Origin: Candidatus Daviesbacteria bacterium RIFCSPLOWO2_01_FULL_39_23
Lineage (GTDB): Bacteria; Patescibacteriota; Microgenomatia; Daviesbacterales; UBA10151
NCBI GenBank assembly: GCA_001776935.1
Contig: MFDN01000003.1
Location: 1 to 62,884, forward strand
Length of the DNA: 62,884 nucleotides
Reading direction: 5' to 3'
In this document: one piece after another, positions 7,260 to 54,582 of the stretch
Numbering within the stretch: position 1 is the first letter of the stretch
How the letters are laid out: every line of letters starts with the position of its first letter
Made by a program: the position numbers and the translations under genes
Notes under the pieces: generated by a model
Told to the model about the DNA's origin: nothing
The model's database searches: none
What the model saw: only the letters and a program-made list of their open reading frames with translations

Positions 7260-8610
7260 TAAATATTTTTTGGACAGCTTCGTTAAATTTTCTACCTCTG
7301 TCAAATTCATTTTGGAATAAATTAAATGAGGTTGCTCCGGGAGAAAATAAAATAGTGTCACCTTCTCTTGCTTCTTTTTTTATCTCTTTTAAAAGATTAA
7401 CTAAATCATTATAAAATCCTTTCCCGCCGATGATTGCAGTATCGCGAATATATTTGGCAATTTCTTTACTGGCATCTCCTTCCAAAAAGTAAACTAATTT
7501 AATACTTTTGGCTGTTTCAATGGCAGCAGCTACTTCGTGGTACTCCAATCCTTTATTCATGCCGCCGGCAATCAGGATTATATTTTTCTTATCAGATGAA
7601 GCTTCTATGGCACTTATAATTGATACCGGATTTGTAGCAGCAGAGTCATTTATAATTGTTATTCCGTTAAAATCGCCCATGGTTTGCATTCTAAACTCTC
7701 CCCCTTTAAAAGCGCTAAAAGCCTTAAGTGTAACTTTGTCATTAATACCTAAAGTTTCTGTGACTGTTAATGCAAGGGAATAATTTTCCCGATAAGCATA
7801 CCCCTTTAAAGGTAGATCTATATTTAGATATTCTTCCTCAAAATCTCCTATACAACTTGTAATAATTTTTGATTTTATTCCCGTAGTTAAATCTTTTGCA
7901 GCTCTTCTTCCGCCGCTATCACCGCAGGGAATAATTAAAAAATCTGTCCTAGTTTGATTTTTGGCAATCTCTTTTTTTGCTTCAATATATTCCTCCATAG
8001 AGGAGTGCCAATTAAGATGGTCCGGATAAATATTGGTAATTACCGCGACTTTTGGAGCAAAATTTTTATCCTTTAACGCTTGCAGCTGAAAAGAAGAAAT
8101 TTCCACCACTATCCAAGGATCTTCTTTCAGATATGGAATGGTATCTAATATACTTTTGCCGATGTTGCCTGCAAAAACAACTTTTTTTCCTGCTTCTTTT
8201 AATGCTTCATAAATTAGTGAAGCAGTTGTTGATTTGCCTTTGGTGCCGGTGACAGCGATGATCTTCTTTTGGTTTGCAAAATTTAAAAAGATAGAAAAAT
8301 CCGTTTCAATTTCCTTTCCTTGTTTTTTTGCATAGTCCATATAAGGATTACCGGGTTTAACAGAAGGATTTTGAATAATTAGATCCGCCCATTCAATATC
8401 TTCGTTTTTGTGGCCCCCTAATGAGTATTCAATATTGTGAATTTCTTTTAACTGTTCTAAAGAGGGTTTTAAAACATCTTCTGATTTTAAATCAGTGACT
8501 TTTACTTTTGCTCCTTGAGAAGCAAAAAATTTAGCACACCCCACCCCGCCTTGATTTAAACCTAAACCAAAAATAAGCACTTTTTTGTCTATAAATGTTT
8601 TATTTATCAT
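7249..8610 (-). CDS. murD: UDP-N-acetylmuramoylalanine--D-glutamate ligase
   Basis: 453 aa; N-terminal Rossmann VLIFGLGLNQGGVG, Mur-ligase P-loop GTKGKSTT. Confidence 0.9.
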   Translation of the reverse strand: MINKTFIDKKVLIFGLGLNQGGVGCAKFFASQGAKVKVTDLKSEDVLKPSLEQLKEIHNIEYSLGGHKNEDIEWADLIIQNPSVKPGNPYMDYAKKQGKEIETDFSIFLNFANQKKIIAVTGTKGKSTTASLIYEALKEAGKKVVFAGNIGKSILDTIPYLKEDPWIVVEISSFQLQALKDKNFAPKVAVITNIYPDHLNWHSSMEEYIEAKKEIAKNQTRTDFLIIPCGDSGGRRAAKDLTTGIKSKIITSCIGDFEEEYLNIDLPLKGYAYRENYSLALTVTETLGINDKVTLKAFSAFKGGEFRMQTMGDFNGITIINDSAATNPVSIISAIEASSDKKNIILIAGGMNKGLEYHEVAAAIETAKSIKLVYFLEGDASKEIAKYIRDTAIIGGKGFYNDLVNLLKEIKKEAREGDTILFSPGATSFNLFQNEFDRGRKFNEAVQKIFNAS

Positions 8611-25403: not shown

Positions 25404-25946
25404 ATGAAATTTTCTGCCCGTGGTTTTACCCTTATGGAGCTTTTAGTGGTAGTTGCCATAATTTCTATTATAGGAGTATATGCACTTTCCAATTATAAAT
25501 CCTTTGGGGAGGATCAAAATTTAAAAAATTCGGTTTTAGATATCCAAAGCAAGCTGCGTACAGCTCAAGCTAATGCCACTTCCAATACAAAATGTGATAC
25601 CCAGTATAATGCTACTTGGGAAGTTGGGTTTGAAAATGATAATGCTGTTAATTTAAACTGCAGGGAATTACCTGATAATATCTATACAAAAAAAACCATA
25701 AATTTGGGTAACATTATACTAACATCAGTACGGGGAGAGCCAGACGCATCCTGCCCGGCGGAGACAGCTTTTAGTGTAATTTTCAATCCACTAAGCGGTA
25801 ATATAAATTTTAAGGATGATAATCCGGGAGGAGGTATTTTGGATGGTTGTTCGAAAATTACGCTAACCTTAGAAAATACTAAAACAATTCCTCCTATACA
25901 AAAAAAATTAATTATTGAAAAAGGAGGAAGGATATATGCAGAGTAA
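25404..25946 (+). CDS. minor pilin (FimT/GspH-like)
   Basis: MKFSARG|FTLMELLVVVAIISII; 180 aa. Confidence 0.8.
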   Translation: MKFSARGFTLMELLVVVAIISIIGVYALSNYKSFGEDQNLKNSVLDIQSKLRTAQANATSNTKCDTQYNATWEVGFENDNAVNLNCRELPDNIYTKKTINLGNIILTSVRGEPDASCPAETAFSVIFNPLSGNINFKDDNPGGGILDGCSKITLTLENTKTIPPIQKKLIIEKGGRIYAE

Positions 25947-26952
25947 CCAATTAACAGTTAACAATGAACAGTTAACAAGTAAAAATCAGTTACTGGACAG
26001 AATATTACGATTTGCAATTGATATTATTAGTCTTGTTGATAAACTTCCCCGGAGTCCTGCAGGTATGAATATTGCAAATCAGCTGGTTAGGTCGGCAACA
26101 TCAATCGGAGCTAATACAGAAGAAGCCCAAGGAGCTTCTTCAAGGAGAGATTTCATAAATAAAATGCATATTGCTTTAAAAGAGGCAAAAGAAAGCAAAT
26201 ATTGGCTTAAGCTTATCCGGCTCTCTCACCTGCAGTCCAGCTATTCAGTGGAGCGCGAACTAAAGGAAGCGGATGAGCTTTGTGCGATTTTTTCTGTTAT
26301 TGTGAAGAAAGCAAAGGTTAACTTGTTAAATGTTAAATCTCAAATGTTAAATGCTAATGGTCAGTCGCTTTTGGAGGTCACAGTGGCTGTGGCTATTGGC
26401 ACCCTGGTGGTGGCGGCTTTAACTTTTGCAACTATTTTTTCTTTAAGAAATGCTAATTTTGCCAAAAACTCTGCCCAGGCCACAAAACTGGCTCAGGAAG
26501 GGATAGAAAGGGTCAGAAGCAGCAGAGACCGAAATCAATGCATAGAAGGTTTGACTAATGTTAACTCCTGGAACGGTAGCACGGATTGTTCTGCCGTATC
26601 TGGATCAGGATCGATTTGGACTTATCCTATATCAGGTGACTGCGACAAACCTGATTTACCTCAAGCAGGTTTTTGCTATTTTAAGGTTAATTCAACTACC
26701 GGACAATTAACAAATATTGGTTTTTCGTTTACACCAACATCCTCTGTCCCATTACCTGCTCAGGCAGAAGGTATTCCTACAACTAACCCGGTATTTAAGA
26801 GGGTAATTCTTCTGTCAGATGATCTTAATCATGATAAAAATTTTACTAACGATGATTATCAAAACCAAAAAGAAGTGACAGTTATTGTTACCTGGAATGA
26901 TTTTGCAGGGACTCATGAATCAAGGTTGACTACTATATTAAGAAAACTATGA
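25936..26952 (+). CDS. four-helix-bundle (23S rRNA IVS-type) domain in frame with a minor pilin-like protein
   Basis: 4HB family signature QLVRSATSIGANTEEAQGASSRRDFINKMHIALKEAKESKYWLKLI (25936 to ~26315; SD AGGAGG upstream). No stop before the internal ATG 26344, which begins MLNANG|QSLLEVTVAVAIGTLVV. Confidence 0.75.
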   Translation: MQSNQLTVNNEQLTSKNQLLDRILRFAIDIISLVDKLPRSPAGMNIANQLVRSATSIGANTEEAQGASSRRDFINKMHIALKEAKESKYWLKLIRLSHLQSSYSVERELKEADELCAIFSVIVKKAKVNLLNVKSQMLNANGQSLLEVTVAVAIGTLVVAALTFATIFSLRNANFAKNSAQATKLAQEGIERVRSSRDRNQCIEGLTNVNSWNGSTDCSAVSGSGSIWTYPISGDCDKPDLPQAGFCYFKVNSTTGQLTNIGFSFTPTSSVPLPAQAEGIPTTNPVFKRVILLSDDLNHDKNFTNDDYQNQKEVTVIVTWNDFAGTHESRLTTILRKL

Positions 26953-26963
26953 GAAGATTTGAT

Positions 26964-27050
26964 TGTCATTCTGAACGAAGTGAAGAATCTCTGACGAATG
27001 TCAGACCCACATTCGTGGGAGATCCTTCGGCTAATCGCCTCAGGATGACA
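26964..27050. mobile_element. MITE-like element (TGTCATTCTGA...TCAGGATGACA)
   Basis: Inverted termini, GAAGAATCTC box, central CCCAC-ATTC-GTGGG hairpin; the last 30 nt are identical to the end of the copy at 54584-54683. Confidence 0.7.
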
Positions 27051-27710
27051 AAGGAACAAGCTCAGGATGAGGGGAGAGAAAATGGTTTTACCCTGGCTGA
27101 AATTATGGTGGTGATGGCTATTACTGCTGTTGTCGGAACAATTTTGGTTTTAATATTTACCAATACGTTAAGAGGCAGCGGTAAATCGCAAATACTGGCG
27201 GTTATAAAGCAGAATGGGCAGTCGGTTTTAGGCAATATTGATAAAACAGTAAGGGATGCAGATAATATAATTTGTCCGACTGGTATTTCTCCTAGTGGCA
27301 GCATTTTAGTTGTTGTCAAAGACGGTGTTTATACAAGGTATCGGATGGTTCTGCCGGATTCATCTGATCCCGTGCCGCTATCCTGCAATGAAAACGGCTG
27401 TATTGCCTGGGATCAGCCGTCTAAGGAGAATGACCTTGATCCTAATACCGGACAGTTGAAATCAGATTCTCAATTTATTAATGATGTTTGCCTGCCAAAT
27501 TCTTTAATGAGTCAAGCTGCGGTTTTAACTGATACCAATTCTCAAACCGGAGTCTCGGTAGAAGATGGGTTTTTTACCCGGAATAAATCTGCAGGATATA
27601 AGGATCAGCTGACGATTGAATTTAAGTTAGGCCCGGGTGCCGGAGTGCCTCAAGCAATCAAAGAACAAATTGATCCGGTGAAATTTCAGACAACAGTGCA
27701 GCTGCGGTAA
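27045..27710 (+). CDS. minor pilin-like protein (PilW-like size)
   Basis: MTKEQAQDEGRENG|FTLAEIMVVMAITAVV; the ATG is supplied by the MITE terminus; the ORF is open from 26949 through the MITE. Confidence 0.75.
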   Translation: MTKEQAQDEGRENGFTLAEIMVVMAITAVVGTILVLIFTNTLRGSGKSQILAVIKQNGQSVLGNIDKTVRDADNIICPTGISPSGSILVVVKDGVYTRYRMVLPDSSDPVPLSCNENGCIAWDQPSKENDLDPNTGQLKSDSQFINDVCLPNSLMSQAAVLTDTNSQTGVSVEDGFFTRNKSAGYKDQLTIEFKLGPGAGVPQAIKEQIDPVKFQTTVQLR

Positions 27711-40482: not shown

Positions 40483-42054
40483 ATGGCTAAAACATTAAAT
40501 AAGTTATCTTCTGCTTTGATTGCAACATACGATCGGATTTCTGCGCCAAACCATGATAAAACTATCTCAGTAAATCCTTTAGTTGCAGAGCTGGCCAGCT
40601 GGTATGAAAAATTCCGTACAGCTATGGATTACCGGGAAGATGAGGTAATCCTGCGTTCTGCTATTGAGCGCATTCTAAAAAGAAGGCTGACTTTTGGCGG
40701 AAAAGGGCAAACAGTTGCTGCGCCGCTGATTCGGGAGCTTGTATGGGCGCGCTATTTTCCGGATTCTTCTATCCCCGAATCGTTAGTTTCTAAAGTTGAA
40801 GAAATAGTTGATCTATATTTAGAGCTTGAGATGCAAATAAATAAAAAACACAGCATTAACAAGGGAAAAGTTAATGAGTGGATAGTGCATCTTTTGTCTT
40901 CTGAGATAGAGCATACTTTAAAACCTAAGGATTCAAAAGATGTGATGTGTAATTTTATATTCAGGATTTTTAAAGATATGATTACCATTTCTGATGACAG
41001 CGAAGAAACAAAAGACGTGCAGACTTTTATTGCAGTAAGAAGAGCGTATGCAAATGATGACCTTGCCCTGCTTCGTTATCATCTTTTTAAACAATATTTT
41101 GGAACAATTAATGAGCATAACTTAGATGAAATTGCGACAGCGTTTCCCAAGGTGGCTACAAACATTGAAAATCAATTCAATTATCCAGCAAAAGACAGGA
41201 TCTACTCATATGTAAAAAATCAAACTATTCCCTTTATAATTTTGGATGATGTTTTAAAAAAGCATAATGGCAAAGCCCTTTCCTTGGCAACTGATGAGGA
41301 TCTTTTAAATTCGGAGATTTTTTCAGCCTGCAATACCCGCTACCGGAATATTAAAGGAAAAGTTAAAAGGGCAATAGTAAGAAGCGTTATTTTTATATTT
41401 TTTACTAAGGCAATCTTTGCTCTTGCCGTGGAAGGAACTTTTGAAAGATTTTTATACGGCCGGATTCTTTGGTCATCCATTGCCTTAAATACTCTGACTC
41501 CCCCCATGCTTATGATTTTAGTGGGAGTTTTGATTAAAACCCCGGGCAGGGATAATTCTTTTAGAATATTAAAAAAAATTAGTACAATTTTGTATGATGA
41601 GCACCCGGCGCTTGCTCCCCCGCTTGTTGTGAAGAAAAAACAAAATAAAACAGATCCATTGCTTTGGACTATATTTATTTTGCTTTGGCTGACAACTTTT
41701 GTCTTGAGCTTTGGGGCGATTGTGTTTGTCCTCAATAAACTGCATATTAATCCCCTTTCGCAGGCGATATTTATGTTTTTCCTTGCAATAGTCTCATTTG
41801 TGAGTTTTAGGATCAACAGGACAGCCCATATGTATATCATCAAAGAAAGAAAAGAAAATTTAAAGTCGCTTTTTGCAGACTTTTTCTTTATGCCTTTTAT
41901 TCAGGTGGGAAGAAGATTGACGCTGGCAATTTCACAAGTGAATATATTTTTATTTGTGTTTGATTTTATTATTGAAACTCCTTTTAAGGGTGTATTTGCC
42001 TTTTTTGAACAATGGTTTCTTTTCCTGCGCTCCCAGCGCGAAAAGTTGGACTAG
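40483..42054 (+). CDS. hypothetical multi-pass membrane protein with ~280-aa soluble N-domain
   Basis: 523 aa; at least five hydrophobic segments in the C-half; no family recognised. Confidence 0.5.
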   Translation: MAKTLNKLSSALIATYDRISAPNHDKTISVNPLVAELASWYEKFRTAMDYREDEVILRSAIERILKRRLTFGGKGQTVAAPLIRELVWARYFPDSSIPESLVSKVEEIVDLYLELEMQINKKHSINKGKVNEWIVHLLSSEIEHTLKPKDSKDVMCNFIFRIFKDMITISDDSEETKDVQTFIAVRRAYANDDLALLRYHLFKQYFGTINEHNLDEIATAFPKVATNIENQFNYPAKDRIYSYVKNQTIPFIILDDVLKKHNGKALSLATDEDLLNSEIFSACNTRYRNIKGKVKRAIVRSVIFIFFTKAIFALAVEGTFERFLYGRILWSSIALNTLTPPMLMILVGVLIKTPGRDNSFRILKKISTILYDEHPALAPPLVVKKKQNKTDPLLWTIFILLWLTTFVLSFGAIVFVLNKLHINPLSQAIFMFFLAIVSFVSFRINRTAHMYIIKERKENLKSLFADFFFMPFIQVGRRLTLAISQVNIFLFVFDFIIETPFKGVFAFFEQWFLFLRSQREKLD

Positions 42055-42122: not shown

Positions 42123-42848
42123 ATGGAGCATGCAATAGTTTTACAACCTGAAACATTAGGATTTATAAAAAATTTTCCTGTCACAAATACCCTTTTAGTT
42201 TCCTGGATAACAATAATAATTTTGACTGTTTTGTCTTTTTTGGCAACCTGGAAAATTAAAATGGTTCCTTCGGGTTTGCAAAATTTATTTGAGGTGATTA
42301 TTGATGCAGGATACAATATGGTTGAAGATTTGGCAGGCAGTAAAAAAGCCAGGGTGTTTTTCCCGATTGTAATGACGTTTTTTCTGTTTATACTTTTTTC
42401 CAATTGGCTTGGTCTTTTGCCGGGTTTTGCAACAATCACCTTCCGCGGTGAGCCCCTGCTTCGTTCTGTAAATTCAGACCTGAATATGACTTTGGCGCTT
42501 GCTTTAACTTCTGCATTTTTAACCCATGCTTTTGCCATCCGCTATTTGGGCATTTTTGATTACTTAAAAAAATGGTTTACCCTAAACCCGATATTTTTAT
42601 TTGTGGGAATATTGGAACTTGTGGGTGAGGTGACAAAAATAGTATCGCTATCTTTTAGGCTTTTTGGTAATATATTTGCAGGGGAAGTGGTTTTGGCAAC
42701 GGTTTCATCAATCTTTGCCTTTTTGATACCGCTCCCTTTTTATTTTTTGGAGATTATTGTAGGATTTGTACAGGCTGCTGTTTTTATGATGCTGACTTTG
42801 GTATTCATGGTGTTATTGTCAGAAAAACATGGAGCTGAGAGTCACTAA
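42123..42848 (+). CDS. atpB: ATP synthase F0 subunit a
   Basis: LSFRLFGNIFAGE (essential Arg helix), multi-TM, 241 aa. Confidence 0.9.
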   Translation: MEHAIVLQPETLGFIKNFPVTNTLLVSWITIIILTVLSFLATWKIKMVPSGLQNLFEVIIDAGYNMVEDLAGSKKARVFFPIVMTFFLFILFSNWLGLLPGFATITFRGEPLLRSVNSDLNMTLALALTSAFLTHAFAIRYLGIFDYLKKWFTLNPIFLFVGILELVGEVTKIVSLSFRLFGNIFAGEVVLATVSSIFAFLIPLPFYFLEIIVGFVQAAVFMMLTLVFMVLLSEKHGAESH

Positions 42849-43145
<297 letters not shown>

Positions 43146-43224
43146 TTCGCAGCTCGTCGGTGCACAAAGCACCCCTCGGCTAGAAAGGCCTGAAACATTA
43201 ACAGTTTCTCTAGCCTCGCTATAT

Positions 43225-43261
43225 GAAGATTTTATGGAGGAATACTACACATAAAATCTTC
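43225..43261. repeat. perfect 10-bp inverted repeat GAAGATTTTA...TAAAATCTTC (17-nt loop)
   Basis: Read directly in the 171-nt atpE-atpF spacer. Confidence 0.6.
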
Positions 43262-43316
43262 AAATTGCTTTGATTGCACTCGACTTCGCTGCTTAAAAGT
43301 AGCTGTTCTAAAATAT

Positions 43317-43811
43317 ATGGAGATTATTAAACAATTTGGCATAAATCCAATACTGTTGGCTGCACAGGTGGTCAATTTTATAGTGCTTCTTTTTATCTTT
43401 AAAAAACTTTTATACAAACCGATTTTGAAAGTCTTGGATGAAAGAAAGAAAAAGATTGAAGAAAGTTTAAAAAATGCAGAAGAAATAGAAGCAAAACTGC
43501 AGGAAACTAATGAGAAAATCGATAAAATGCTTGCTAAAGCCTTAGATGAAGGACAAAAAATCAGGGAAGAATCAAAAAAAGAAGCAAGTGTGTACTTGGA
43601 GGATGTTAAACAAAATGCTTCTAAATTATCTCAGGAAATAATTAAAAAAGGTGAAGAAGCATTAAGGGTGGAAAAAGAAAAAATGCAAACAGAATTAAGG
43701 GTGGAATTTTCAGAGATAGTAGCTGCGGCTTTACAAAAAGTTACCGGTAAGGTACTTTCTAAGAAAGATCAAAAAGACATGATCGAAAAGTCCATAAAAG
43801 GGCTGGTATAA
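43317..43811 (+). CDS. atpF: ATP synthase F0 subunit b
   Basis: N-terminal TM (ILLAAQVVNFIVLLFIF) then long charged helix. Confidence 0.85.
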   Translation: MEIIKQFGINPILLAAQVVNFIVLLFIFKKLLYKPILKVLDERKKKIEESLKNAEEIEAKLQETNEKIDKMLAKALDEGQKIREESKKEASVYLEDVKQNASKLSQEIIKKGEEALRVEKEKMQTELRVEFSEIVAAALQKVTGKVLSKKDQKDMIEKSIKGLV

Positions 43812-43826
43812 ACCAATCGTACTATT

Positions 43827-44222
43827 ATGAAAAAAAATAAATATTTGCAAAAACTGATTAATAAACTGGTAGATTTAAGTTTGAAAGAGGACAGGATTAT
43901 TGAAGGTCAGGTGACAAAATCTATTAAGATTTTAAAATCTCTGCCGCAAGCTCAGGCTATCGATGCCCTCTCGGAATATTTGCGGCAATTAAAGCGGAAG
44001 GAAAGAGAGCATACTTTATATATAGAAACAGCGATCCCCTTAACGCCGGAGCAAATTAAAAAGATGAAAAAAATTGTAGAAAAAAAGGTTAAAATCACGA
44101 AAGTTTTGGTAAACAGCAATACAGGAATACTTGGAGGATTTAAGATAAGAATCGGTGATGAAATTTGGGATGATTCTATTTCAGGCAGGATAGAAAAAGT
44201 TAAGGAGGTAATCCAGGGATGA
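43827..44222 (+). CDS. atpH: ATP synthase subunit delta (OSCP), short form
   Basis: C-terminus [26 protein letters not shown] matches the OSCP signature; operon position. Confidence 0.8.
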
Positions 44223-45730
44223 GCGATTTAATTGCTGATATAGAAAACCAAATAAAAGGCCTTAAATTAAAGACTCAGAAGCAGAACATTGGGGTTGTTA
44301 CAGAAATTGGTGACGGTGTGGCCAGAATAGAAGGCTTATCCGGCGTTCAGTACTCGGAGCTTATAGATTTTGGCAAAGGAATAACCGGACTTGCATTGAA
44401 TTTAGAGCAATATAATGTCGGATCAGTTATTTTTGGGGAGTTTCCCAAGATTAAAGAAGGCGATGAGGTTAAGACTACGGGTAATGTTTTACAGGTTCCT
44501 GTTGGAGAAGGTTTGATCGGCCGGGTGGTAGATGCATTGGGTAATCCTTTGGATGGGAAGGGCAAAATAAAAGCAAGTGATTATTATCCTGTGGAAAAAA
44601 TTGCTCCTGGTGTTATCACAAGACAGGGTGTTAATACTCCCCTGCAAACCGGCATAAAAGCGGTTGATTCCATGATTCCCGTCGGTCGGGGTCAGCGTGA
44701 GCTTATTATCGGAGACCGAAACACAGGGAAAACCACCATCGCCATAGATACCATAATCAACCAGAAAGATGTTATTTGCATTTATGTGGCAATCGGCCAA
44801 AAAACCTCCAAAATTGCCCAGTTGGTGGCAAAACTTGAGGAAAAAGGTGCAATGAAGCATACCATTATTGTGTCTGCAACAGCTTCTGATTCAGCCACCA
44901 TGCAGTATATTGCCCCCTACTCCGGTTGTGCTATGGGTGAATATTTTATGGATCAGGGTAAAGATGCATTAATTGTTTATGATGATCTGTCAAAGCATGC
45001 CTGGGCATACCGGCAAATATCTTTACTTTTGCGCCGTCCATCCGGCAGGGAGGCTTATCCGGGAGATGTATTTTATCTGCACTCAAGACTTTTGGAACGG
45101 GCTGCAAAATTAAATAAGGATTACGGCGGCGGATCTTTAACTGCTTTGCCTATTATTGAAACTCAAGCCGGTGATGTTTCTGCATATATTCCCACTAATG
45201 TTATTTCAATTACGGATGGGCAAATTTACCTGGAAGCAGATCTTTTTTATGCAGGCTTTCGGCCGGCTTTAAACGTTGGTATTTCTGTTTCCCGTGTGGG
45301 AGGTGCCGCGCAGACAAAAGCTATGAAAGCGGTTGCAGGAAAATTAAGACTTGATTTGGCGCAATTTAGGGCATTGCAGGCTTTTGCCCAATTTTCTTCT
45401 GATTTAGACCCGGCCACAAAGACGCAAATTGAAAGAGGTAAAAGAATTACAGAGATCCTAAAACAGCCTCCATATCAGCCTGTTCCGGTAGCAGAACAGG
45501 TAGCATCGCTTTGGGCAGTTACTAACGGGTATTTGGATGAAGTGGAAATTGAAAGAGTGAAAGAATTTGAGACTAAATATATTGATTATCTAAAGACCCG
45601 GGAGAAAGCACTTCTTAAAGATATTGCAGAGAAAAAAGAATTGGATGAAAGGCTGATCAAAGAACTTGAAAAAGCCACTAAAGCGTTTGCGGGAATGTTT
45701 AATAAAGGCAAGAAGGGAGATACGAGATAA
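44219..45730 (+). CDS. atpA: ATP synthase F1 subunit alpha
   Basis: Walker A GDRNTGKT, 503 aa, ATGA overlap with atpH. Confidence 0.95.
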
Positions 45731-45780
45731 GTAATAAGAGATATGTTTTAACTTATCACATATTACGTATCGCTTATATC
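45716..45780. repeat. word hairpin (GATACG/GATAAG words), loop GTTTTAAC
   Basis: Arms 45716-45744 and 45753-45780; the atpA stop codon lies inside the left arm. Confidence 0.6.
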
Positions 45781-45786
45781 TAACAC

Positions 45787-46677
45787 ATGGCTAATACAAG
45801 AGAACTTCGGAGAAGAATAAAATCTATAAAAAATACGGCTCAAATTACCAAAGCCATGCAGATGGTGGCTGCAACTAAAATGAGAAGGGCGCAAAATCAG
45901 GCAATAAGCGGCAGGCCTTACAGTTTTAATTTAAATAATGCGCTCTCAAGGCTTTTACCACTGGTGGATATTGGTTCTCATCCCCTGCTTTTGGGAAATG
46001 AGTCTTTGAAAAAAGGAATTGTGTTACTTTCTACGGATAAGGGTTTATGTGGGGCTTTAAACACAAATTTATTCAGACTGATGCTCTCTTCAAATTTAAC
46101 TGGGGGGAATACTATATTTTATACTGTCGGCAAAAGAGGCAGGAGCTTTGTGGTCAAATCCGGCGGGCAACTTTTGGCTGATTTTGAGAATTTGGATATT
46201 ATAACCTTCAGACAGGCAGCACAGCTGGCAAGAATGGCTGTTGATTCTTTTATGGCAAAAGAGGTAAGCGAAGTTTTTATTGTTTATCCTCATTTTATTT
46301 CAACTCTGCGCCAGGAATCAATCAAAATAAAGCTATTGCCGATAGATTTAGAATCAGTTATTGCAGGTATAGAAAAAGAGATTGACACCTCGCCTGCGGC
46401 TCCTCGCAATGACAAGGCAGGAGAATTCCTGTTTGAGCCGAATCCAAAGATTTTGTTGGATTATATTTTAGTTCATCAAATTCAAACTAAAATTTATCAG
46501 GCTCTTTTGGAAACCAAAGCTTCAGAGTTTTCAAGCAGAATGATTGCCATGCAGAATGCAACAGATAATGCTTTGGAACTTGTGGATGACCTAAATCTTG
46601 CATATAATCAAACGCGTCAGGATTCTATAACAAAAGAACTTTTGGAGATTACAACGGCTGCAGCCGCGATGACATGA
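45787..46677 (+). CDS. atpG: ATP synthase F1 subunit gamma
   Basis: ELRRRIKSIKNTAQITKAMQMVAATKMRRAQ N-terminus, C-terminal ITKELLEI. Confidence 0.9.
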   Translation: MANTRELRRRIKSIKNTAQITKAMQMVAATKMRRAQNQAISGRPYSFNLNNALSRLLPLVDIGSHPLLLGNESLKKGIVLLSTDKGLCGALNTNLFRLMLSSNLTGGNTIFYTVGKRGRSFVVKSGGQLLADFENLDIITFRQAAQLARMAVDSFMAKEVSEVFIVYPHFISTLRQESIKIKLLPIDLESVIAGIEKEIDTSPAAPRNDKAGEFLFEPNPKILLDYILVHQIQTKIYQALLETKASEFSSRMIAMQNATDNALELVDDLNLAYNQTRQDSITKELLEITTAAAAMT

Positions 46678-46679
46678 AG

Positions 46680-48173
<1,494 letters not shown>

Positions 48174-48177
48174 TCTT

Positions 48178-48702
48178 TTAGTAGTTTTTGATTCTTTTAG
48201 CTCTTTCCAAAACCCGGTGCATTCTTGCCCGTGATGATCTTTGTATCATCACAGGGTATAAATTTCCTGCTCCCCATGCGGCAGATGCGACTATAAGAAT
48301 ATTATTATTTAAGCTAGTTGCTGTTATCAAGCCTGTTATTCCTAAAAGTGTGCCTGCGGTATGAAGTATTTCATGCTTTCTTGAGTATGTTTCATATTTG
48401 AGTATTTCTTCTAAAGTAGGGGTTTTTAGTGTAAATCCTTTCTGATGGTATTTTGGATCTATTTTCCTTCTTTCTCTGACTTCTAAATCTCCCCCGTTTG
48501 GGATATATCTTTTAATCAGTTCCACGCCGAGTAATTTATATAAGATGCCTTTTTGTGCTGTTTCCCAAGGAAATGGCTTAAAGTAGCGGGCCGGAAGTAT
48601 CTCGGCTATTTTATAAGCAATTGTGTCGGCAAGATTTTGATATCTATTATTAATTTCCCGGTAGCCGCCTTTGCAGGTTTCAACAAGGCCCATGCAGAGC
48701 AT
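48178..48702 (-). CDS. membrane protein resembling glycosyl-4,4'-diaponeurosporenoate acyltransferase (CrtO-like) family
   Basis: LPARYF, ETYSRKHEILH and NLYPVMIQRSSRARM resemble, from memory, the IPDKYF / ETKRAELIHW / IIVQRYNRPR pattern of that family. Confidence 0.4.
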   Translation of the reverse strand: MLCMGLVETCKGGYREINNRYQNLADTIAYKIAEILPARYFKPFPWETAQKGILYKLLGVELIKRYIPNGGDLEVRERRKIDPKYHQKGFTLKTPTLEEILKYETYSRKHEILHTAGTLLGITGLITATSLNNNILIVASAAWGAGNLYPVMIQRSSRARMHRVLERAKRIKNY

Positions 48703-48738: not shown

Positions 48739-49110
48739 CTAGGAAATTTGTTCAAAAGTTCCATCAAGGTGAAGGTAGTAAGTATTAACTTCCAGATCAG
48801 GGTATTGCCCTTTAATTTTTTCGGCAGCATTTTTTAAATCTTCACTGTGTTTTTCTGCAGTACCCGCTTCTCCGTATGCTCCGCAGTCTTCGTGATTTAC
48901 GAGTATCACTTTATTAATTTGATGCAGTCTTTTGGAAATACTAACTTGTTTTAGAACATATTCAAAATCAAACACTCCTCCGGCCAGACTTACCCTATCA
49001 TAGGTTTTGGGGGCAAAATTTTCCGAGATAAATTTATTTATATATTCCTGAAAGCGGAAATCAATGCAGGTGGCTATTAATGCATCGCATGTATGGTTAC
49101 TCATAAACAA
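48739..49110 (-). CDS. minimal beta-carbonic-anhydrase-like protein
   Basis: 123 aa; C15-I-D17-F-R19 and H73-E-D-C76-G: the CxDxR...HxxCG zinc-site pattern with beta-CA-like 58-residue spacing. Confidence 0.55.
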   Translation of the reverse strand: MFMSNHTCDALIATCIDFRFQEYINKFISENFAPKTYDRVSLAGGVFDFEYVLKQVSISKRLHQINKVILVNHEDCGAYGEAGTAEKHSEDLKNAAEKIKGQYPDLEVNTYYLHLDGTFEQIS

Positions 49111-49125
49111 AGATATTACACTATT

Positions 49126-49154
49126 TTGGATTTTTTGACCAGATTTGTTATACT
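49126..49154 (+). promoter_or_regulatory. putative extended -10 promoter TTGGAT-17-(TGt)TATACT
   Basis: Read directly in the divergent spacer upstream of 49197. Confidence 0.4.
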
Positions 49155-49163
49155 ACAACCTTA

Positions 49164-49191
49164 ATTCGACCCAACAGGGGTCGGATTTTTT
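49164..49191 (+). terminator. intrinsic-terminator-like hairpin plus T5 tract, 5 nt before start codon 49197
   Basis: 9-bp stem ATTCGACCC / GGGTCGGAT (one G-U), 5-nt loop, then TTTTT. Confidence 0.4.
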
Positions 49192-49196
49192 AAAAT

Positions 49197-50723
49197 ATGC
49201 CTGAACGAATTTTAGACAGAGTGCCGCCTGAATTTCAACTAAAACCAGATTCGCAAATCCTCCGCCAGGAACTCTTGGAGGCGGATCCTTCATTGGCTTC
49301 TGATAGATTACTGCTGGAGGAGGCTCATGGATTAATTGTTTATAACAATTTTGTGGCCGGGATATATACTTCCCCCGAGCGATTAAAGGTGAGAGACATG
49401 AATAAAGTACAAGCAGAAGCTAATACTGCTGATATTGATTGCGTGGATGGGCGTCGTGGAGGGAAACAACAAGAAGAAGGTCCAACACATACCGAACCAG
49501 GCGGTTTTACTAAAAGAGCACCTAGGCTTTACCAAAGAAAAAAGCATGAATCAGGCGGAAAGCATATCCCGAGGTCAGCCTTTTTAAGGGGAGGAATTAA
49601 AGCAGCCGCTTATGAGGGTAAGGATCTAGTTGAATTTCCCAAAGGCCACTTTATGGAGGAACCTTTAAAAGATGCCAATGGTAAACATTTATCTCCTTTT
49701 CAGACCTGCGGACAGGCCGCCAAAATGCAGGATCAAGGAGAAATCAAGGATCCTGATTTAATCAGAGGCCATATTGGTAAGCTTAATGAAATAACAGTAC
49801 CAGCTGTAACTGATTGGTATGACGATTGTCTGGATATGCAGGGAAGGGATATTCTAAAAATGGTGTGTGTACCTTTGATGTTGGATGCTGAAACCAGAGG
49901 CTATGTTTTAGATCTAGACAAAAAGAATTTATATTCCCCTTTATCTGTAGCGGAATTGATAAAAGTCTATAGAGGTAGGATAGAAGCGAGTTTAGGGAAA
50001 CTAGTGGGCAGTTATGGGTCTAAGGCAGAATGGTTACTCAACCCAGCAAAAATAACTGATTTAGCTTTGGTAAGATACGAGATAACCCGCGGCTTAATGC
50101 AGGATGATCAGCTGCGCCCATTCAGAGAAGATATTTTAACCTATCTTTCTGAACATTATGCTGATTTAACTGCTCAGCAACGGCAGGGAGTATTATTTAA
50201 GTTTTCTAATAATGGTTCATTAGTTTATTTACAAGGTTCAGCCTATAAAGAAGCAGAACATCCTTATAAATGGCATAATGAAAGATGTTTAGTGATTAGC
50301 CCAGAAGGCAATCCTCCTTTTGTGTATTTCCCCGATATCCAGAGCTTTGTTGCTACACCACCCGAACCAGAGAGAACAAATATTTACGCAAACACAATGA
50401 TCGATATTTGGAATCATTATCACGAGGAGGCAAAGACAAGAAACTCGCACACTAGAATGCCAGATGAGATTTTAATATTTTTAACTACACCGGTTTATGG
50501 AGAACTTACTCAGAGGAATCATAATTATGTGGCTGCTTTAAATACTAGTGCTGAATTATTCCATCATATGATTAGTGATCCTACTAAAATTGAGAGCGAG
50601 AATGGTGCTACTAAATTTGATTTATATAAAGCTGGTAAATTAAAAGTTTTCTCATTACTTTATGATTATCAGACTAGAATTATTAGAGCAGTAGTGAATA
50701 ATCGCGCAATCGCCAACAGATGA
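49197..50723 (+). CDS. large uncharacterised protein with CsoSCA-like (beta-CA subclass) zinc-site signature
   Basis: 508 aa; DIDC82-V-D84-G-R86, H151 (+69 from Cys), QTC171GQAA. Confidence 0.4.
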   Translation: MPERILDRVPPEFQLKPDSQILRQELLEADPSLASDRLLLEEAHGLIVYNNFVAGIYTSPERLKVRDMNKVQAEANTADIDCVDGRRGGKQQEEGPTHTEPGGFTKRAPRLYQRKKHESGGKHIPRSAFLRGGIKAAAYEGKDLVEFPKGHFMEEPLKDANGKHLSPFQTCGQAAKMQDQGEIKDPDLIRGHIGKLNEITVPAVTDWYDDCLDMQGRDILKMVCVPLMLDAETRGYVLDLDKKNLYSPLSVAELIKVYRGRIEASLGKLVGSYGSKAEWLLNPAKITDLALVRYEITRGLMQDDQLRPFREDILTYLSEHYADLTAQQRQGVLFKFSNNGSLVYLQGSAYKEAEHPYKWHNERCLVISPEGNPPFVYFPDIQSFVATPPEPERTNIYANTMIDIWNHYHEEAKTRNSHTRMPDEILIFLTTPVYGELTQRNHNYVAALNTSAELFHHMISDPTKIESENGATKFDLYKAGKLKVFSLLYDYQTRIIRAVVNNRAIANR

Positions 50724-50738
50724 TATAATCAAATAATT

Positions 50739-51149
50739 ATGTCACAACTGCATTTGAAAATTGTTACCCCTGAAAAGTTAATATTAGATGAGGAAGTGTC
50801 TCAGGTTAATGTTTCCACTCAGGAAGGGGAAATCGGCATACTTCCCCATCATGCTAATTTAATGGCTAAAGTAAAACCCGGAGAGTTGGTTATCAAAAGA
50901 AGCGGTAAAATTGACTCTTTGGCAATTGGAGGAGGGTTTTTACAGGTTTCCGACAATATTGTGACAGTAATGACAGATTTAGCAACTTATGCCACTGATA
51001 TTGATGAAAGGGCTGTTGAGGAAGCTAAAAAGCGGGCAGAGCAGGCTTTGACTCAAACTTTATCTGATGAAGAATATGCAGAAACCCTGGCAAACTTGGA
51101 AAAATCTTTAGCCCAACTTCGCATCAAACGCCGCCACAAAGTTAGATAG
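50739..51149 (+). CDS. atpC: ATP synthase F1 subunit epsilon
   Basis: 136 aa; LHLKIVTPEK...GEIGILPHHANL, C-terminal helical hairpin. Confidence 0.9.
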   Translation: MSQLHLKIVTPEKLILDEEVSQVNVSTQEGEIGILPHHANLMAKVKPGELVIKRSGKIDSLAIGGGFLQVSDNIVTVMTDLATYATDIDERAVEEAKKRAEQALTQTLSDEEYAETLANLEKSLAQLRIKRRHKVR

Positions 51150-51428
51150 CTACTTATACAACTGGCTGTGAGTGCCGAGAAGTTCAAATATAACCGCATC
51201 TTTTTCTTCTGAATAAATAGCCCGCCAGTCCCCTGTGATATTGATACTTCTATAGCCTTTGTATTTGCCGGTAAGCGTGTGATTATTAAGCTGTGGATGA
51301 AACTGGTCAGCTATAAATAAGCCGAGCCGTTGGCGTAAAGCAATTTTTATGGAAAGTGGAGCTTTTTTAAGTTGTTTGTTAAAGCCTTTGGAATAATCAA
51401 TTCTGCTTAGACTTTTTTTCATCAGCAA
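51150..51428 (-). CDS. type II toxin, RelE/ParE superfamily (YafQ-like)
   Basis: 92 aa; GKYKGYRSINITGDWRAIY and GTHSQLY C-terminus; overlaps the upstream antitoxin gene. Confidence 0.7.
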   Translation of the reverse strand: MLMKKSLSRIDYSKGFNKQLKKAPLSIKIALRQRLGLFIADQFHPQLNNHTLTGKYKGYRSINITGDWRAIYSEEKDAVIFELLGTHSQLYK

Positions 51429-51699
51429 TGATTTTATCTAAGTAGTCTAAAGCATCATTGGGCTTTTTGAAAGAGATTACTCTGCCTGCTTTTATATCTT
51501 TTCTAGACTCCTTCAAGGCTTGGATCATGTATTCAGACGGTTCTTCTCTTAAGCTAAAAGTTACAGTCTTAGTTTTTATAAGCTGTCTCAAATAGCCATT
51601 TATCAGGCTGCTTAAGGATAAGCCCAGTTTTCCGGCAACTTTTTGGGCATCTTTTTTAACCTGAGGATTAATTTTAATATTAATTACTGCTGTATTCAT
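51397..51699 (-). CDS. RelB/DinJ-family antitoxin (RHH)
   Basis: 100 aa; INIKINPQVKKDAQKVAGKLGLSLSSLINGYLRQL ribbon-helix-helix-like N-terminus. Confidence 0.65.
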   Translation of the reverse strand: MNTAVINIKINPQVKKDAQKVAGKLGLSLSSLINGYLRQLIKTKTVTFSLREEPSEYMIQALKESRKDIKAGRVISFKKPNDALDYLDKIIADEKKSKQN

Positions 51700-53592: not shown

Positions 53593-54582
53593 ATGGGTGA
53601 AAAAAATCCTGATTTGAGCATAGTAATTTTAAGTTACAACGTCCGGGATTTATTACTAAATTGCCTGGAGTCAATTTTCAAAAATATTACAAAAGAAGAT
53701 AATTGGCAGGTTATTGTGGTGGATAATGCTTCAACAGACGGGTCAGTGGAGGCAGTAAAGGAAAAGTATAAGGTAGCTGAAATAAATTCAGGGATTCTTC
53801 GCTTCGCTCAGAATGACAAAAAAGGTGCTCGGAATGACAACGTTGTAGAACTAATAGAAAATAAGGAGAATTTGGGATTTGCGGCCGGGAATAACGAAGG
53901 TGTAAAATGCGCTAAAGCTCCTGTTATTTTATTTTTAAATCCTGATACTATTATTGTCGGCGATGCCATACAAAAATCTTTGGAGGTTTTACTTTCAAAT
54001 CCGGATTTAGGAGCTTTGACCTGTAAGGTGGAACTGCCTGATGGAAGATTAGACTACTCCTGCCACAGGGGCTTCCCTACTCCCTGGAATTCATTTTGTT
54101 ATTTTGGGGGAATTTCCAAAAGATTTAGAAAATCCCCAATTTTCTCTGGATACACCGCCAGTTATTTGGATATGACTAGTCCGCACGTTGTAGATTGCAT
54201 CAGCGGAACTTTTTTTATGGTCAGAAAAATAGCCGGAGAGCAGGTTGGTTTTTGGGATAAGGATTATTTTTTTAACGGCGAAGATATAGAATTTTGCTAC
54301 CGTTTAAAAGAAAAAGGATGGCAGATTTATTATTATCCGTTGGTTAAAATAATTCATTATAAAGGTTCATCTTCCGGGCTTTGGCGTACATCGGGTATGA
54401 AAGTGCAAAAGACGACAAAACTAACTTCTGCTTCTCATGCTGCTTCTGCTATGAAATTATTTTATAAAAAACACTATTATGTTAAATACCCTCCCTTGTT
54501 TCGGGATTTTGTGCTTTGGGGAATATTGCTTTTGGAAAAATACAGGAAGTTTAAAATATTAACTGGATTAAGGTATGAGTAA
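53593..54582 (+). CDS. family 2 glycosyltransferase (rhamnosyltransferase-like)
   Basis: LSIVILSYN, VVDNASTDGS, NLGFAAGNN, NPD, GEDIEFCYR. Confidence 0.85.
   Translation: MGEKNPDLSIVILSYNVRDLLLNCLESIFKNITKEDNWQVIVVDNASTDGSVEAVKEKYKVAEINSGILRFAQNDKKGARNDNVVELIENKENLGFAAGNNEGVKCAKAPVILFLNPDTIIVGDAIQKSLEVLLSNPDLGALTCKVELPDGRLDYSCHRGFPTPWNSFCYFGGISKRFRKSPIFSGYTASYLDMTSPHVVDCISGTFFMVRKIAGEQVGFWDKDYFFNGEDIEFCYRLKEKGWQIYYYPLVKIIHYKGSSSGLWRTSGMKVQKTTKLTSASHAASAMKLFYKKHYYVKYPPLFRDFVLWGILLLEKYRKFKILTGLRYE
53791..53843. repeat. MITE end fragments translated inside the GT2 gene
   Basis: GGGATTCTTCGCTTCGCTCAGAATGACA plus GCTCGGAATGACA; encodes GILRFAQNDKKGARNDN. Confidence 0.65.

Follow-up and report, generated by a model that had tools for sequence, protein, structure and literature searches.

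The closest described counterpart of the gene studied here encodes CsoSCA, the carboxysomal carbonic anhydrase (CA) represented by the structures 2FGY, 8THM and 9G4T and by the Pfam families PF20687, PF20686 and PF08936. This enzyme has three domains, of which the first is helical, the second is the catalytic beta-CA domain and the third is a defunct copy of the fold; its N-terminus binds Rubisco, and its gene lies in the cso operon, after csoS2 and together with the shell and Rubisco genes. CsoSCA homologues outside carboxysome loci, named CsoSCA2, were found via Pfam08936 by Sutter, Kerfeld and Scott in 2022 (PMC9164163). These were reported from several CPR phyla, Daviesbacteria not being listed among them, and their function was described as unstudied (PMC9164163). 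The N-terminal domain, which is 144 aa long in the H. neapolitanus CsoSCA, is reduced to about 40 aa with two short helices in a compact CsoSCA2 variant (PMC9164163). The same paper asks whether free-living enzymes of the CsoSCA2 type gave rise to the carboxysomal one, and it does not mention an ATP-synthase, SulP or Pro_CA_2 context of CsoSCA2 genes (PMC9164163). As a kind, non-carboxysomal CsoSCA homologues have been known since 2022, and the branch described below is one that lies beneath the reach of Pfam.

CA-like modules are also known on proton-translocating complexes: DabA/DabB (MpsAB), CupA/CupB on the cyanobacterial NDH-1, and the gamma-CA of plant complex I. DabA has a beta-CA-like Cys/His/Cys/Asp site. 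SulP anion transporters have reportedly been described as associated or fused with beta-CAs (by Felce and Saier, in 2004), and SulP proteins of the BicA type transport bicarbonate. We know of no CA module of the DabAB, CupAB or gamma-CA kind on the F1Fo ATPase, and our literature search returned nothing relevant on carbonic anhydrases in or beside ATP synthase operons, nor on follow-up work on CsoSCA2.

An earlier note on the DNA analysed here had proposed a 508-aa protein with a CsoSCA-like carbonic anhydrase site outside a carboxysome context, and fold, profile and conservation agree with that proposal. The open reading frame (ATG start, TGA stop; Table 1) is real, as was established by re-deriving it together with its translation, and its stop lies 15 nt 5' of atpC, as had been noted. 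Two opposite-strand genes separate atpD from atpC in the window (the whole 62.9-kb stretch of DNA that was analysed), so that atpC would have to be transcribed either from the promoter of the CA gene or from one within its coding sequence; probably, the CA gene and atpC are co-transcribed from a promoter of their own. The GC content of the CA gene (39.6%) and its GC3 (30.6%) are like those of the flanking atp genes, which rules out a recent horizontal acquisition. Shell, RuBisCO and transporter genes, which had been noted as lacking nearby, are absent from the entire window. The close homologues carry the name Candidatus Daviesbacteria, in keeping with the CPR host that had been surmised.

Table 1. 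Positions of the features discussed in the text, numbered from the first nucleotide of the window.
Feature	Position	Strand	Basis or remark
Predicted CsoSCA-like (CsoSCA2-like) beta-class carbonic anhydrase gene, 508 aa	49197..50723 (including stop)	+	ORF and translation, homologues, model
N-terminal all-helical domain (residues 1-72)	49197..49412	+	DSSP of model
Catalytic beta-CA-like domain and helical linker (residues ~73-355)	49413..50261	+	model; hhalign from query column 78
C82-V-D84-G-R86, predicted first zinc ligand and Asp-Arg dyad	49440..49454	+	invariant; aligned to CsoSCA CADGR
His151, predicted second zinc ligand	49647..49649	+	invariant; aligned to CsoSCA ligand His
Cys171 (QTCGQAA), predicted third zinc ligand	49707..49709	+	invariant; aligned to CsoSCA GCAAHG
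C-terminal degenerate beta-CA-like domain (residues ~356-508)	50262..50720	+	conservation, hhalign, model
H360-x-E362 motif in C-terminal domain	50274-50282	+	H360 and E362 each at least 90% conserved
Mini beta-CA-like protein, 123 aa, divergent partner (C15-I-D-F-R19 ... H73-E-D-C76-G)	48739..49110	-	Pfam PF20393 Pro_CA_2
Divergent intergenic region, 86 nt	49111..49196	.	sequence
Extended -10, TGTTATACT (putative promoter)	49146-49154		TGnTATACT kept in alignment with L001, L002, L004
Leader hairpin (putative)	49163-49187		folding: dG -14.1 kcal/mol, z -4.6
T-run after leader hairpin	49186-49191		6 nt 5' of CA gene ATG
atpC (F1 epsilon subunit)	50739..51149	+	Pfam ATP-synt_DE_N E 9e-27 and ATP-synt_DE
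Remaining F1Fo operon	42123..48173	+	ORFs; as phmmer queries recover atp genes in related loci
atpB	42123-42848	+	
atpE	42879-43145	+	
atpF	43317-43811	+	
atpH	43827-44222	+	
atpA	44219-45730	+	
atpG	45787-46677	+	
atpD	46803-48173	+	

Used as a single sequence, the 508-aa protein had no match at E<=1 in Pfam and NCBIfam, and none at this level in the PDB. When the PDB was searched with the family profile, CsoSCA chains were reached only at a non-significant E of 0.68-1.1; designed armadillo repeats, which topped that search, were rejected as repeat noise with no individually significant stretch. Profile comparison by hhalign with 16 genuine CsoSCA sequences gave E 7.5e-5 over 323 columns, though at a probability of only 62%, and placed the five catalytic residues (the Cys/His/Cys ligands and the Asp-Arg dyad) as well as the DTDT and HxE motifs of the two proteins in register. 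The protein has 11 close homologues, and a profile search added about 87 very divergent, distant cluster representatives (clusters at 50% identity); a homologue search with a 75-sequence alignment recovered the same 11 proteins and nothing further. CsoSCA_cat of Pfam was touched by only three of the 75 relatives (best E 0.014), and PF08936 was matched at E<=0.1 neither by the window protein nor by any of the 75. The named sources of the branch are, with one exception, Patescibacteria/CPR genomes. Judged by these comparisons, the 508-aa protein belongs to a fast-evolving, non-carboxysomal, CsoSCA2-like branch that Pfam does not detect. Two other assignments were ruled out. Membership of the canonical beta-CAs fails for want of a match to PF00484 (Pro_CA) and on a His-Cys gap of 20 (9-11 in most relatives), so that kinship with that family is at the superfamily level only; membership of DabA/MpsB fails for want of a match to PF10070 (DUF2309) and of a DabB (NuoL-like) neighbour in the window or the related loci.

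The AF2 model of the protein, calculated with the 75-sequence alignment, has a pLDDT of 91.8 and a pTM of 0.92. This alignment was needed, as the 11 close homologues alone gave a pLDDT of 58 with residues 75-250 below 50 and an unusable catalytic region. When the model was compared with the PDB by Foldseek, the top five matches were all CsoSCA (9g4t, 2fgy, 8thm; E 2e-8 to 1.2e-6, probability 1.00), with TM values of 0.44-0.51 over 504-573 columns. The next match was the two-domain beta-CA of Porphyridium (E 2e-6); the rest had E values of at least 3e-3, canonical beta-CAs appearing only at E 0.1-1. According to DSSP, the N-terminal domain of the model comprises helices at residues 5-8, 11-14, 17-29, 31-34, 37-57 and 60-72. 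The hhalign match leaves this domain out, starting only at CsoSCA column 161. The C-terminal domain, whose boundary with the catalytic domain was placed by the HxE motif, aligns to that of CsoSCA including its GHAERF sequence, and it is modelled with strands at 362-367, 382-386, 425-433, 482-490 and 496-500. It has no conserved Cys and no conserved zinc triad, H360 and E362 being its only positions to reach at least 90% conservation; most likely, this domain is a second copy of the fold in which the metal site has been lost. No membrane segment is predicted in the protein.

The residues expected to hold the metal were found at the places given in the earlier note (C82, D84, R86, H151 at C82+69, and C171 in QTCGQAA). 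C82 falls within ADIDCVDGRRGG, and in the model the C82-V-D84-G-R86 box stands at the end of strand 76-81, His151 within strand 144-153, and Cys171 directly before helix 172-179. They align to C184, D186, R188, H252 and C263 of CsoSCA (Thiodictyon numbering). Besides Met1, these five are the sole invariant columns in the 75 relatives, which are about 20% identical to the query, and they are also invariant in the 11 orthologues; with this degree of divergence, the alignment puts the C/D/R/H/C signature far beyond chance. Most relatives carry the motif AH[TY][SD]S..P.HGC[GA]A, which is near the YHxSSxDPxHEGCAAH of CsoSCA. Not every detail of the original comparison survived. The Cys-to-His distance of +69, said to equal that of CsoSCA, is correct for the window protein and fails as a signature, since members of the family show values between 59 and 85 and the genuine CsoSCA sequences compared have 67-68; on these figures, the exact match is a coincidence. 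The difference in His-to-Cys spacing stood, with 20 residues here and 11 in CsoSCA. Since this spacing is 9-11 in 57 of the 75 relatives, the roughly 10 additional residues between H151 and C171 are a clade-specific insertion. H164, the alternative ligand that had been suggested, was ruled out, as even the close homologues do not conserve it. The predicted zinc site is accordingly intact and of the CsoSCA type: Cys82, His151 and Cys171 would hold the zinc, and the Asp84-Arg86 dyad would order the zinc-bound water.

CsoSCA, the best structural match, is thus close in length to the 508-aa protein and laid out in the same three domains. However, the two are only about 10% identical in sequence, and the 72-aa N-domain does not align to the N-terminus of CsoSCA; as it lies outside the hhalign match, the Rubisco-binding N-terminus is absent. 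Moreover, the gene stands in an ATP synthase operon instead of a cso operon. Like CsoSCA2, the protein is non-carboxysomal and combines a presumably active domain, in which no active-site residue is missing, with a defunct one. Its N-terminal domain of 72 aa and six helices is shorter than that of H. neapolitanus CsoSCA and longer than that of compact CsoSCA2. Yet CsoSCA2 was collected by Pfam08936, whereas the present family is invisible to it.

The divergent partner gene had been overlooked in the earlier note. Its product matches Pro_CA_2 (PF20393) above the gathering threshold (E 6.5e-17; 62.3 bits, cut-off 30), contains CIDFR and HEDCG (the CxDxR and HxxC motif pair), and has weak PDB matches to Rv1284, a small beta-CA, in which the two motifs line up. 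It is predicted to be a second intact beta-CA-like protein. A Pro_CA_2 neighbour is also present in the related loci L001, L002, L004 and L007, and, in the same direction as the CA gene, in L010/L016. Within the intergenic region, the extended -10 might serve as the promoter of the CA gene and the hairpin as part of its leader. The hairpin is kept in L001 and L004, the stem CGACC/GGTCG being CGGCC/GGCCG in L004; a consensus terminator scan did not flag it, although it is clear on folding.

The neighbourhood comparison comprised 18 distinct loci besides the window, which had been selected by the length of their contigs and are few and phylogenetically clustered; locus searches with narrower alignments yielded three loci each. 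Two genuine cso loci (L014 and L015) were taken for contrast. The CA gene is upstream of atpC or atpB in 12 of the 18, at a spacing of 4-130 nt from atpB or atpC. It stands directly 5' of atpC in the window and in L001, L007, L009 and L011, within one to five genes of atpC in L002 and L003, and directly 5' of atpB, heading atpBEFHAGDC, in L005, L008, L010/L016, L017 and L018. The atpB-upstream loci are widely syntenic with one another and may represent a single event. None of the 18 loci contains cso operon genes (shell, Rubisco), and the ATP synthase operon appears to be a new genomic context for a CsoSCA-like gene. As with DabAB, CupAB and the complex I gamma-CA, the gene of a predicted zinc protein of the CA type is associated with those of a proton-translocating membrane complex; here, however, this complex would be the F1Fo ATPase, and no DabB/NuoL-like gene is near. 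In a single sampled locus (L009), a SulP/STAS anion transporter gene lies directly 5' of the CA gene, in the order atpG-atpD-sulP-CA-atpC. This resembles the SulP-beta-CA pairs, but here the CA is of the CsoSCA type instead of being a canonical one, and the two genes are placed between atpD and atpC; the window itself has no SulP gene.

The reading we prefer, at a probability of roughly 0.6, is that the 508-aa protein is a soluble, cytoplasmic, CsoSCA-type zinc carbonic anhydrase that is co-expressed with, and probably serves, the F1Fo ATPase. Transcribed together with atpC from its own promoter, and next to the minimal beta-CA Pro_CA_2, the gene would supply an enzyme catalysing CO2 + H2O <-> HCO3- + H+ in the cytoplasm. 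By equilibrating CO2, bicarbonate and protons at the cytoplasmic face of the F1Fo ATPase, this enzyme might supply protons to a pumping ATPase, or remove them during ATP synthesis. The local bicarbonate level might be under its control as well, and this oxyanion is known to affect F1 hydrolysis. Oxyanions including bicarbonate reverse inhibition of the F1-ATPase and relieve Mg-ADP inhibition, an effect that is modulated by epsilon (PMC3603449, PMC8039183). The placement in the ATP synthase operon suggests that CO2/bicarbonate chemistry is connected with proton-driven energy conversion.

Alternatively, the protein could be a genuine cytoplasmic CA of the CsoSCA2 type whose gene lies among the atp genes by chance. 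The atpD-atpC junction and the stretch 5' of atpB would then be places at which these small genomes tolerate insertions, and the task of the enzyme would be housekeeping bicarbonate supply for carboxylations and pH buffering. The atpD-atpC gap indeed also houses unrelated genes, such as a CrtO-like gene in the window, three genes including a glyoxalase gene in L011, and five genes in L002; one gene separates the CA gene from atpC in L003, and Mur ligase genes lie inside the atp operon of L009. Furthermore, the linkage is missing from the two largest sub-clusters, and an atp link is lacking in clusters 9, 10 and 11, which hold over half of the representatives. The unlinked CA genes of L012, L013 and L019-L021 are found near fmt/tgt/queA or sugar-nucleotide genes, and that of L006 is unlinked as well. 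Nevertheless, we consider an incidental position less likely, for several reasons: lineages with CA-like proteins of about 20% identity have the gene at two different operon positions; the spacing to atpB or atpC is tight; atpC would rely on the transcription unit of the CA gene in the window, L001 and L007; and the L011 and window versions of atpD and of atpC are each 86% identical, while the CA genes in the same slot are only 23% identical over 200 aa. The last observation indicates that the slot stayed the same although its gene was either exchanged for another or underwent drastic divergence.

A stronger form of the preferred reading, in which the CsoSCA-like protein, often with Pro_CA_2, is a functional and perhaps physical accessory of F1Fo, forming a CA/ATPase 'metabolon' in Patescibacteria, is in our view a doubtful extension. 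In fermentative, respiration-poor cells the ATPase would mainly run in reverse, building the proton-motive force, and the CA would feed it protons from the hydration of CO2 and would also supply bicarbonate; the latter might be exported (the SulP of L009) or might activate F1 by relieving Mg-ADP/epsilon inhibition. In acid-secreting epithelia, CAII works with the V-ATPase, and such a metabolon, if true, would be its bacterial counterpart. It would then be the fourth CA module recruited to a proton machine, after the gamma-CA of complex I, CupA of NDH-1 and DabAB, and it could preserve the original niche of the CsoSCA lineage, from before the carboxysome.

It is improbable that the beta-CA fold and the metal site have been kept for a different reaction, such as COS or CS2 hydrolysis, or for sensing CO2/bicarbonate. 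The same Cys/His/Cys zinc site on a beta-CA fold is present in COS hydrolase and CS2 hydrolase, the sequence is extremely far from that of any assayed CA, and two adjacent beta-CA-like genes could differ in function; yet the closest structures without exception come from active CAs, no relative varies in the Asp-Arg dyad, the SulP gene beside the CA gene of L009 speaks for bicarbonate, and a sulfur-metabolism context was not seen at any locus. Least probable of all is a non-catalytic, CA-descended structural or assembly accessory of F1Fo, comparable to the gamma-CA of plant complex I or replacing AtpI at the operon head: the CA genes of L005, L008, L017 and L018 do occupy the slot 5' of atpB that is usual for atpI, and the sequence evolves very fast while the position is kept, but strict invariance of five catalytic residues at about 20% identity points to retained chemistry, relatives outside atp operons retain the same site, and AtpI is a membrane protein, which the 508-aa protein by prediction is not.

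With this family, the CsoSCA lineage gains a large, Pfam-invisible branch of about 87 clusters at 50% identity, almost only from CPR bacteria, which bears on the question of whether the carboxysomal enzyme originated from CsoSCA2-type enzymes (PMC9164163). Its recurrence at two places within the ATP synthase operon provides the first concrete functional lead for CsoSCA2-type enzymes. The slot is filled even by highly dissimilar occupants, and the gene is also met beside a second beta-CA and, in one case, beside a SulP gene. CPR bacteria have a minimal energy metabolism, and little is understood of how they maintain a proton-motive force and pH homeostasis. As the CsoSCA-like genes are now annotated as 'hypothetical protein', CO2/bicarbonate handling is likely under-called in CPR genomes.

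The earlier note had described a 508-aa reading frame carrying the zinc-site signature of CsoSCA (CsoS3), the alpha-carboxysomal carbonic anhydrase (CA). ORF calling and translation bear out the gene, the positions of C82, H151 (at +69) and C171 in QTCGQAA, and the 15-nt spacer (TATAATCAAATAATT) between its stop codon and atpC, the latter being identified by its Pfam domain. The GC and GC3 contents of the CA gene are those of its neighbours, and the remainder of the window carries the usual CPR housekeeping genes (gyrA/B, mur ligases, a type IV pilus cluster, recG and glycosyltransferases). Shell, Rubisco and transporter genes, said to be missing nearby, were found nowhere in the window. A minimal beta-CA-like neighbour, Pro_CA_2, had been overlooked in the sequence-only reading.

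Features of the CsoSCA-like gene and its surroundings in the window
Feature	Position	Strand	Remarks
F1Fo operon atpBEFHAGD	42123-48173	+	upstream of CA gene
CrtO-like membrane protein	48178-48702	-	174 aa; Pfam CrtO (glycosyl-4,4'-diaponeurosporenoate acyltransferase), E 2.8e-22
Pro_CA_2 'putative carbonic anhydrase'	48739..49110	-	123 aa; Pfam E 6.5e-17; CIDFR ... HEDCG
Extended -10, TGnTATACT	49146-49154	+	conserved; in 86-nt divergent intergenic region
Leader hairpin and T-run	49163-49191 (hairpin 49163-49187)	+	10-bp stem; dG -14.1 kcal/mol, z -4.6
CsoSCA-like CA gene	49197..50723	+	ORF, translation 508 aa
C82-V-D84-G-R86 codons	49440-49454	+	C82 within ADIDCVDGRRGG
H151 codon	49647-49649	+	C82 + 69 residues
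C171 codon	49707-49709	+	within QTCGQAA
atpC	50739..51149	+	Pfam ATP-synt_DE_N, E 9e-27

The window protein had no match in Pfam or NCBIfam at E<=1 and nothing meaningful among PDB sequences, and a search of 5.8 billion proteins returned only 11 relatives (46-99% identity), of which one carries the name Candidatus Daviesbacteria. Invariant in these close relatives are C82, V83, D84, G85, R86, H151, C171 and G172. H164, which had been offered as an alternative zinc ligand, is variable even among these 11 and was rejected. A profile of the 11 relatives retrieved 87 proteins at E<=1e-3 from 1.84 billion cluster representatives (61 at E<=1e-10), nearly all of them 450-550 aa long. When 75 of the 87 were aligned (17-29% identity to the window protein, one closer relative 47%), just five columns apart from Met1 were invariant: C82, D84, R86, H151 and C171, the Cys/His/Cys set and the Asp-Arg dyad. 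Nothing else speaks as strongly for a functional signature as this confinement of invariance to five residues, and the conservation of the three ligands asked of orthologues thus holds in both close and distant relatives.

The "exactly +69" match of the Cys-to-His spacing to CsoSCA is fortuitous, since this spacing ranges from 59 to 85 within the family and is 67-68 in genuine CsoSCA sequences. In most relatives, the region of the second and third ligands reads AH[TY][SD]S..P.HGC[GA]A, near the YHxSSxDPxHEGCAAH of CsoSCA. From His to Cys, 57 of the 75 relatives have a spacing of 9-11 and CsoSCA one of 11; an insertion of about 10 residues brings it to 20 in the window clade.

AlphaFold2 gave a poor model from a shallow alignment (pLDDT 58), and a model with pLDDT 91.8 and pTM 0.92 from the 75-sequence alignment. 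The five best Foldseek matches of this model in the PDB were all CsoSCA (9g4t, 2fgy and three 8thm chains; E 2e-8 to 1.2e-6, probability 1.00, TM 0.44-0.51, 504-573 columns). The sixth was 1ddz, the two-domain Porphyridium beta-CA (2e-6), nothing further was better than 3e-3, and single-domain canonical beta-CAs gave E values of 0.1-1. In the model, C82 ends up at the close of strand 76-81, H151 within strand 144-153, and C171 just before helix 172-179. For profile comparison, a 16-sequence CsoSCA alignment was assembled from genes of cso operons on Thiodictyon and Nitrobacter plasmids plus relatives. Against the 75-sequence family, hhalign matched 323 columns (E 7.5e-5, probability 62%) spanning the catalytic and C-terminal domains, with CIDGR on CADGR, ligand His on ligand His, hGCgA on EGCAAH, DTDTMG on DTDTDA, and H360-x-E362 on GHAERF. 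The profile and structure comparisons, as proposed in the earlier note, support its reading of the signature as CsoSCA-like. Judging from the hhalign register and the family alignments, C82, H151 and C171 would converge in space. The helical N-terminal 72 residues lie outside the match. In the C-terminal domain, no Cys is conserved across the 75-sequence alignment, so that this domain is "defunct", like that of CsoSCA.

Three genes occupy the atpD-atpC interval of the window: the CrtO-like and Pro_CA_2 genes, both on the reverse strand, and the CA gene. As the two reverse-strand genes place atpC out of reach of the atp promoter, atpC needs either the transcription unit of the CA gene or a promoter inside it, and we infer that the CA gene and atpC are co-transcribed. 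The leader hairpin with its T-run lies 3' of the extended -10 and 6 nt 5' of the CA gene ATG, and resembles a strong terminator, though it was not picked up when the sequence was scanned for consensus terminators. It is kept in two related loci, L001 and L004, the stem CGACC/GGTCG being CGGCC/GGCCG in L004. A possible role is control of the CA-atpC unit, as an attenuator or as a 5' stem-loop that stabilises the mRNA. The CrtO-like ORF lies 4 nt beyond the atpD stop codon; related loci do not keep it there, and L001 has two unannotated genes in its place. On the other side, a YafQ-family toxin and RelB antitoxin pair (51150-51699, reverse strand; Pfam E 1.7e-12 and 1.2e-8) is convergent with atpC, with no spacer to its stop codon. 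A RelB gene is also found a few genes 3' of atpC in L003.

Besides the window, 18 distinct loci (L010 and L016 counted once) carry homologues, a small and non-random sample. The CA gene is directly 5' of atpC, with gaps of 15-32 nt, in the window, L001, L007 (protein 29% identical), L009 (about 22%) and L011, a Daviesbacteria locus. It is one to five genes from atpC in L002 and L003. In L005 (gap 4 nt), L008, L010/L016, L017 and L018 (labelled 'Patescibacteria group bacterium'), it lies directly 5' of atpB and is itself the first gene of the atpBEFHAGDC operon, with Pro_CA_2 in between in L010/L016. Pro_CA_2 adjoins the CA gene divergently in the window, L001, L002, L004 and L007, and co-directionally in L010. 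In L009, the order is atpG-atpD-sulP-CA-atpC on one strand, the SulP/STAS transporter gene (6321-7988) ending 12 nt 5' of the CA gene; Mur-ligase genes break this operon between atpA and atpG. L017 (CAYHKI010000048.1), a MAG contig of 7.6 kb that bears the label 'uncultured Gammaproteobacteria bacterium', has the CPR-type arrangement and a CsoSCA-like protein 37% identical to P0021, and is probably a mis-binned Patescibacteria contig. In the window, this slot 5' of atpB (gap 69 nt) is taken by another gene (40483-42054, forward strand), whose 523-aa product is hydrophobic in its C-terminal half and has no Pfam match and no CxDxR motif.

The occupant of the atpC slot is less constant than the slot itself, most tellingly when the window is set against L011. 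The atp genes of L011 are as near to those of the window (atpD 86%, atpC 86%, atpG 70%) as are those of L001 (89%, 85% and 65%). In that same slot, however, the CA gene of L001 is 65% identical to the one of the window, and that of L011 (8001-9596) only 23%, over 200 aa. The slot was thus kept while its occupant changed: either a distant homologue replaced the gene in situ, or the gene diverged to an extreme degree. At the place of Pro_CA_2, L011 carries a glyoxalase-family gene.

The protein looks cytoplasmic, its N-terminus having no signal peptide or membrane segment as judged by eye. Presumably it is a zinc protein that converts CO2 to bicarbonate and back, in a role that would be coupled to the ATPase. 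F1Fo in these fermentative bacteria probably serves largely to pump protons at the expense of ATP; with a CA in the cytoplasm, protons would then be supplied and buffered faster (CO2 + H2O -> HCO3- + H+), and the CA would also set local bicarbonate. Bicarbonate is among the oxyanions that reverse F1-ATPase inhibition, and oxyanions in general relieve Mg-ADP inhibition, an effect modulated by epsilon (PMC3603449, PMC8039183). This proton-supply and bicarbonate role is the most economical physiological reading. Alternatively, the atp genes might merely offer a permissive insertion site, the synteny being incidental. Unrelated genes share the atpD-atpC gap, and linkage is absent from L006, L012, L013 and L019-L021 (between fmt and tgt/queA in the last three) and from the two largest sub-clusters of the family; clusters 1, 7, 8 and 12 are atp-linked and 9, 10 and 11 are not, L004 being too short to inform. 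The beta-CA fold might also serve a different reaction, the hydrolysis of COS or CS2 for example, or the protein might be a non-catalytic ATP-synthase accessory.

Elsewhere in the window, a short repeat, CATTCTGAGCGAAGCGAAGAATC, occurs at 26967-26989 (+) and 53793-53815 (-), with 0 and 2 mismatches and none expected by chance. Each copy is embedded in a coding region, and the two are oppositely oriented (...HSERSEES... in ORF 26949-27710; ...LRFAQNDK... in the glycosyltransferase 53593-54582). The pattern resembles a small repeat or mobile element whose presence within genes is tolerated. The product of ORF 25915-26952 (+), in the type IV pilin cluster, starts with a '23S rRNA-intervening sequence protein' four-helix bundle (PF05635, E 5.8e-18); the part that follows is pilin-like and has a hydrophobic helix, an odd combination that is either a fusion or an insertion. 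Two further unusual fusions combine peptide deformylase with D-Ala-D-Ala ligase (5709-7361, reverse; Pfam Pep_deformylase, Dala_Dala_lig), and HAD phosphatase with D-2-hydroxyacid dehydrogenase and an ACT domain (12544-14433, reverse; SerB-SerA-like).

Non-carboxysomal CsoSCA homologues were named 'CsoSCA2' by Sutter, Kerfeld and Scott in 2022; they combine one active with one defunct domain, keep every catalytic residue, have a shorter N-terminus, are listed from several CPR phyla, Daviesbacteria not among them, and are stated to be unstudied (PMC9164163). That survey, in which ATP synthase, ATPase and SulP go unmentioned, was based on Pfam08936 (PMC9164163), whereas the present family is invisible to PF08936, which matched neither the window protein nor the 75 family members; CsoSCA_cat gave three marginal matches among the 75. 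The window protein has the fold and zinc site of CsoSCA, but not its sequence models or operon setting, and we file it as a divergent CsoSCA2-like member of that lineage. Full-text literature searches turned up neither follow-up work on CsoSCA2 nor any account of CPR bacteria with a carbonic anhydrase in or beside an ATP synthase operon. The kind of protein is already known, and its genomic association with ATP synthase appears to be new. That the gene is embedded among the atp genes was not to be expected and can be tested, and with this family the CsoSCA lineage stretches well past current sequence models.
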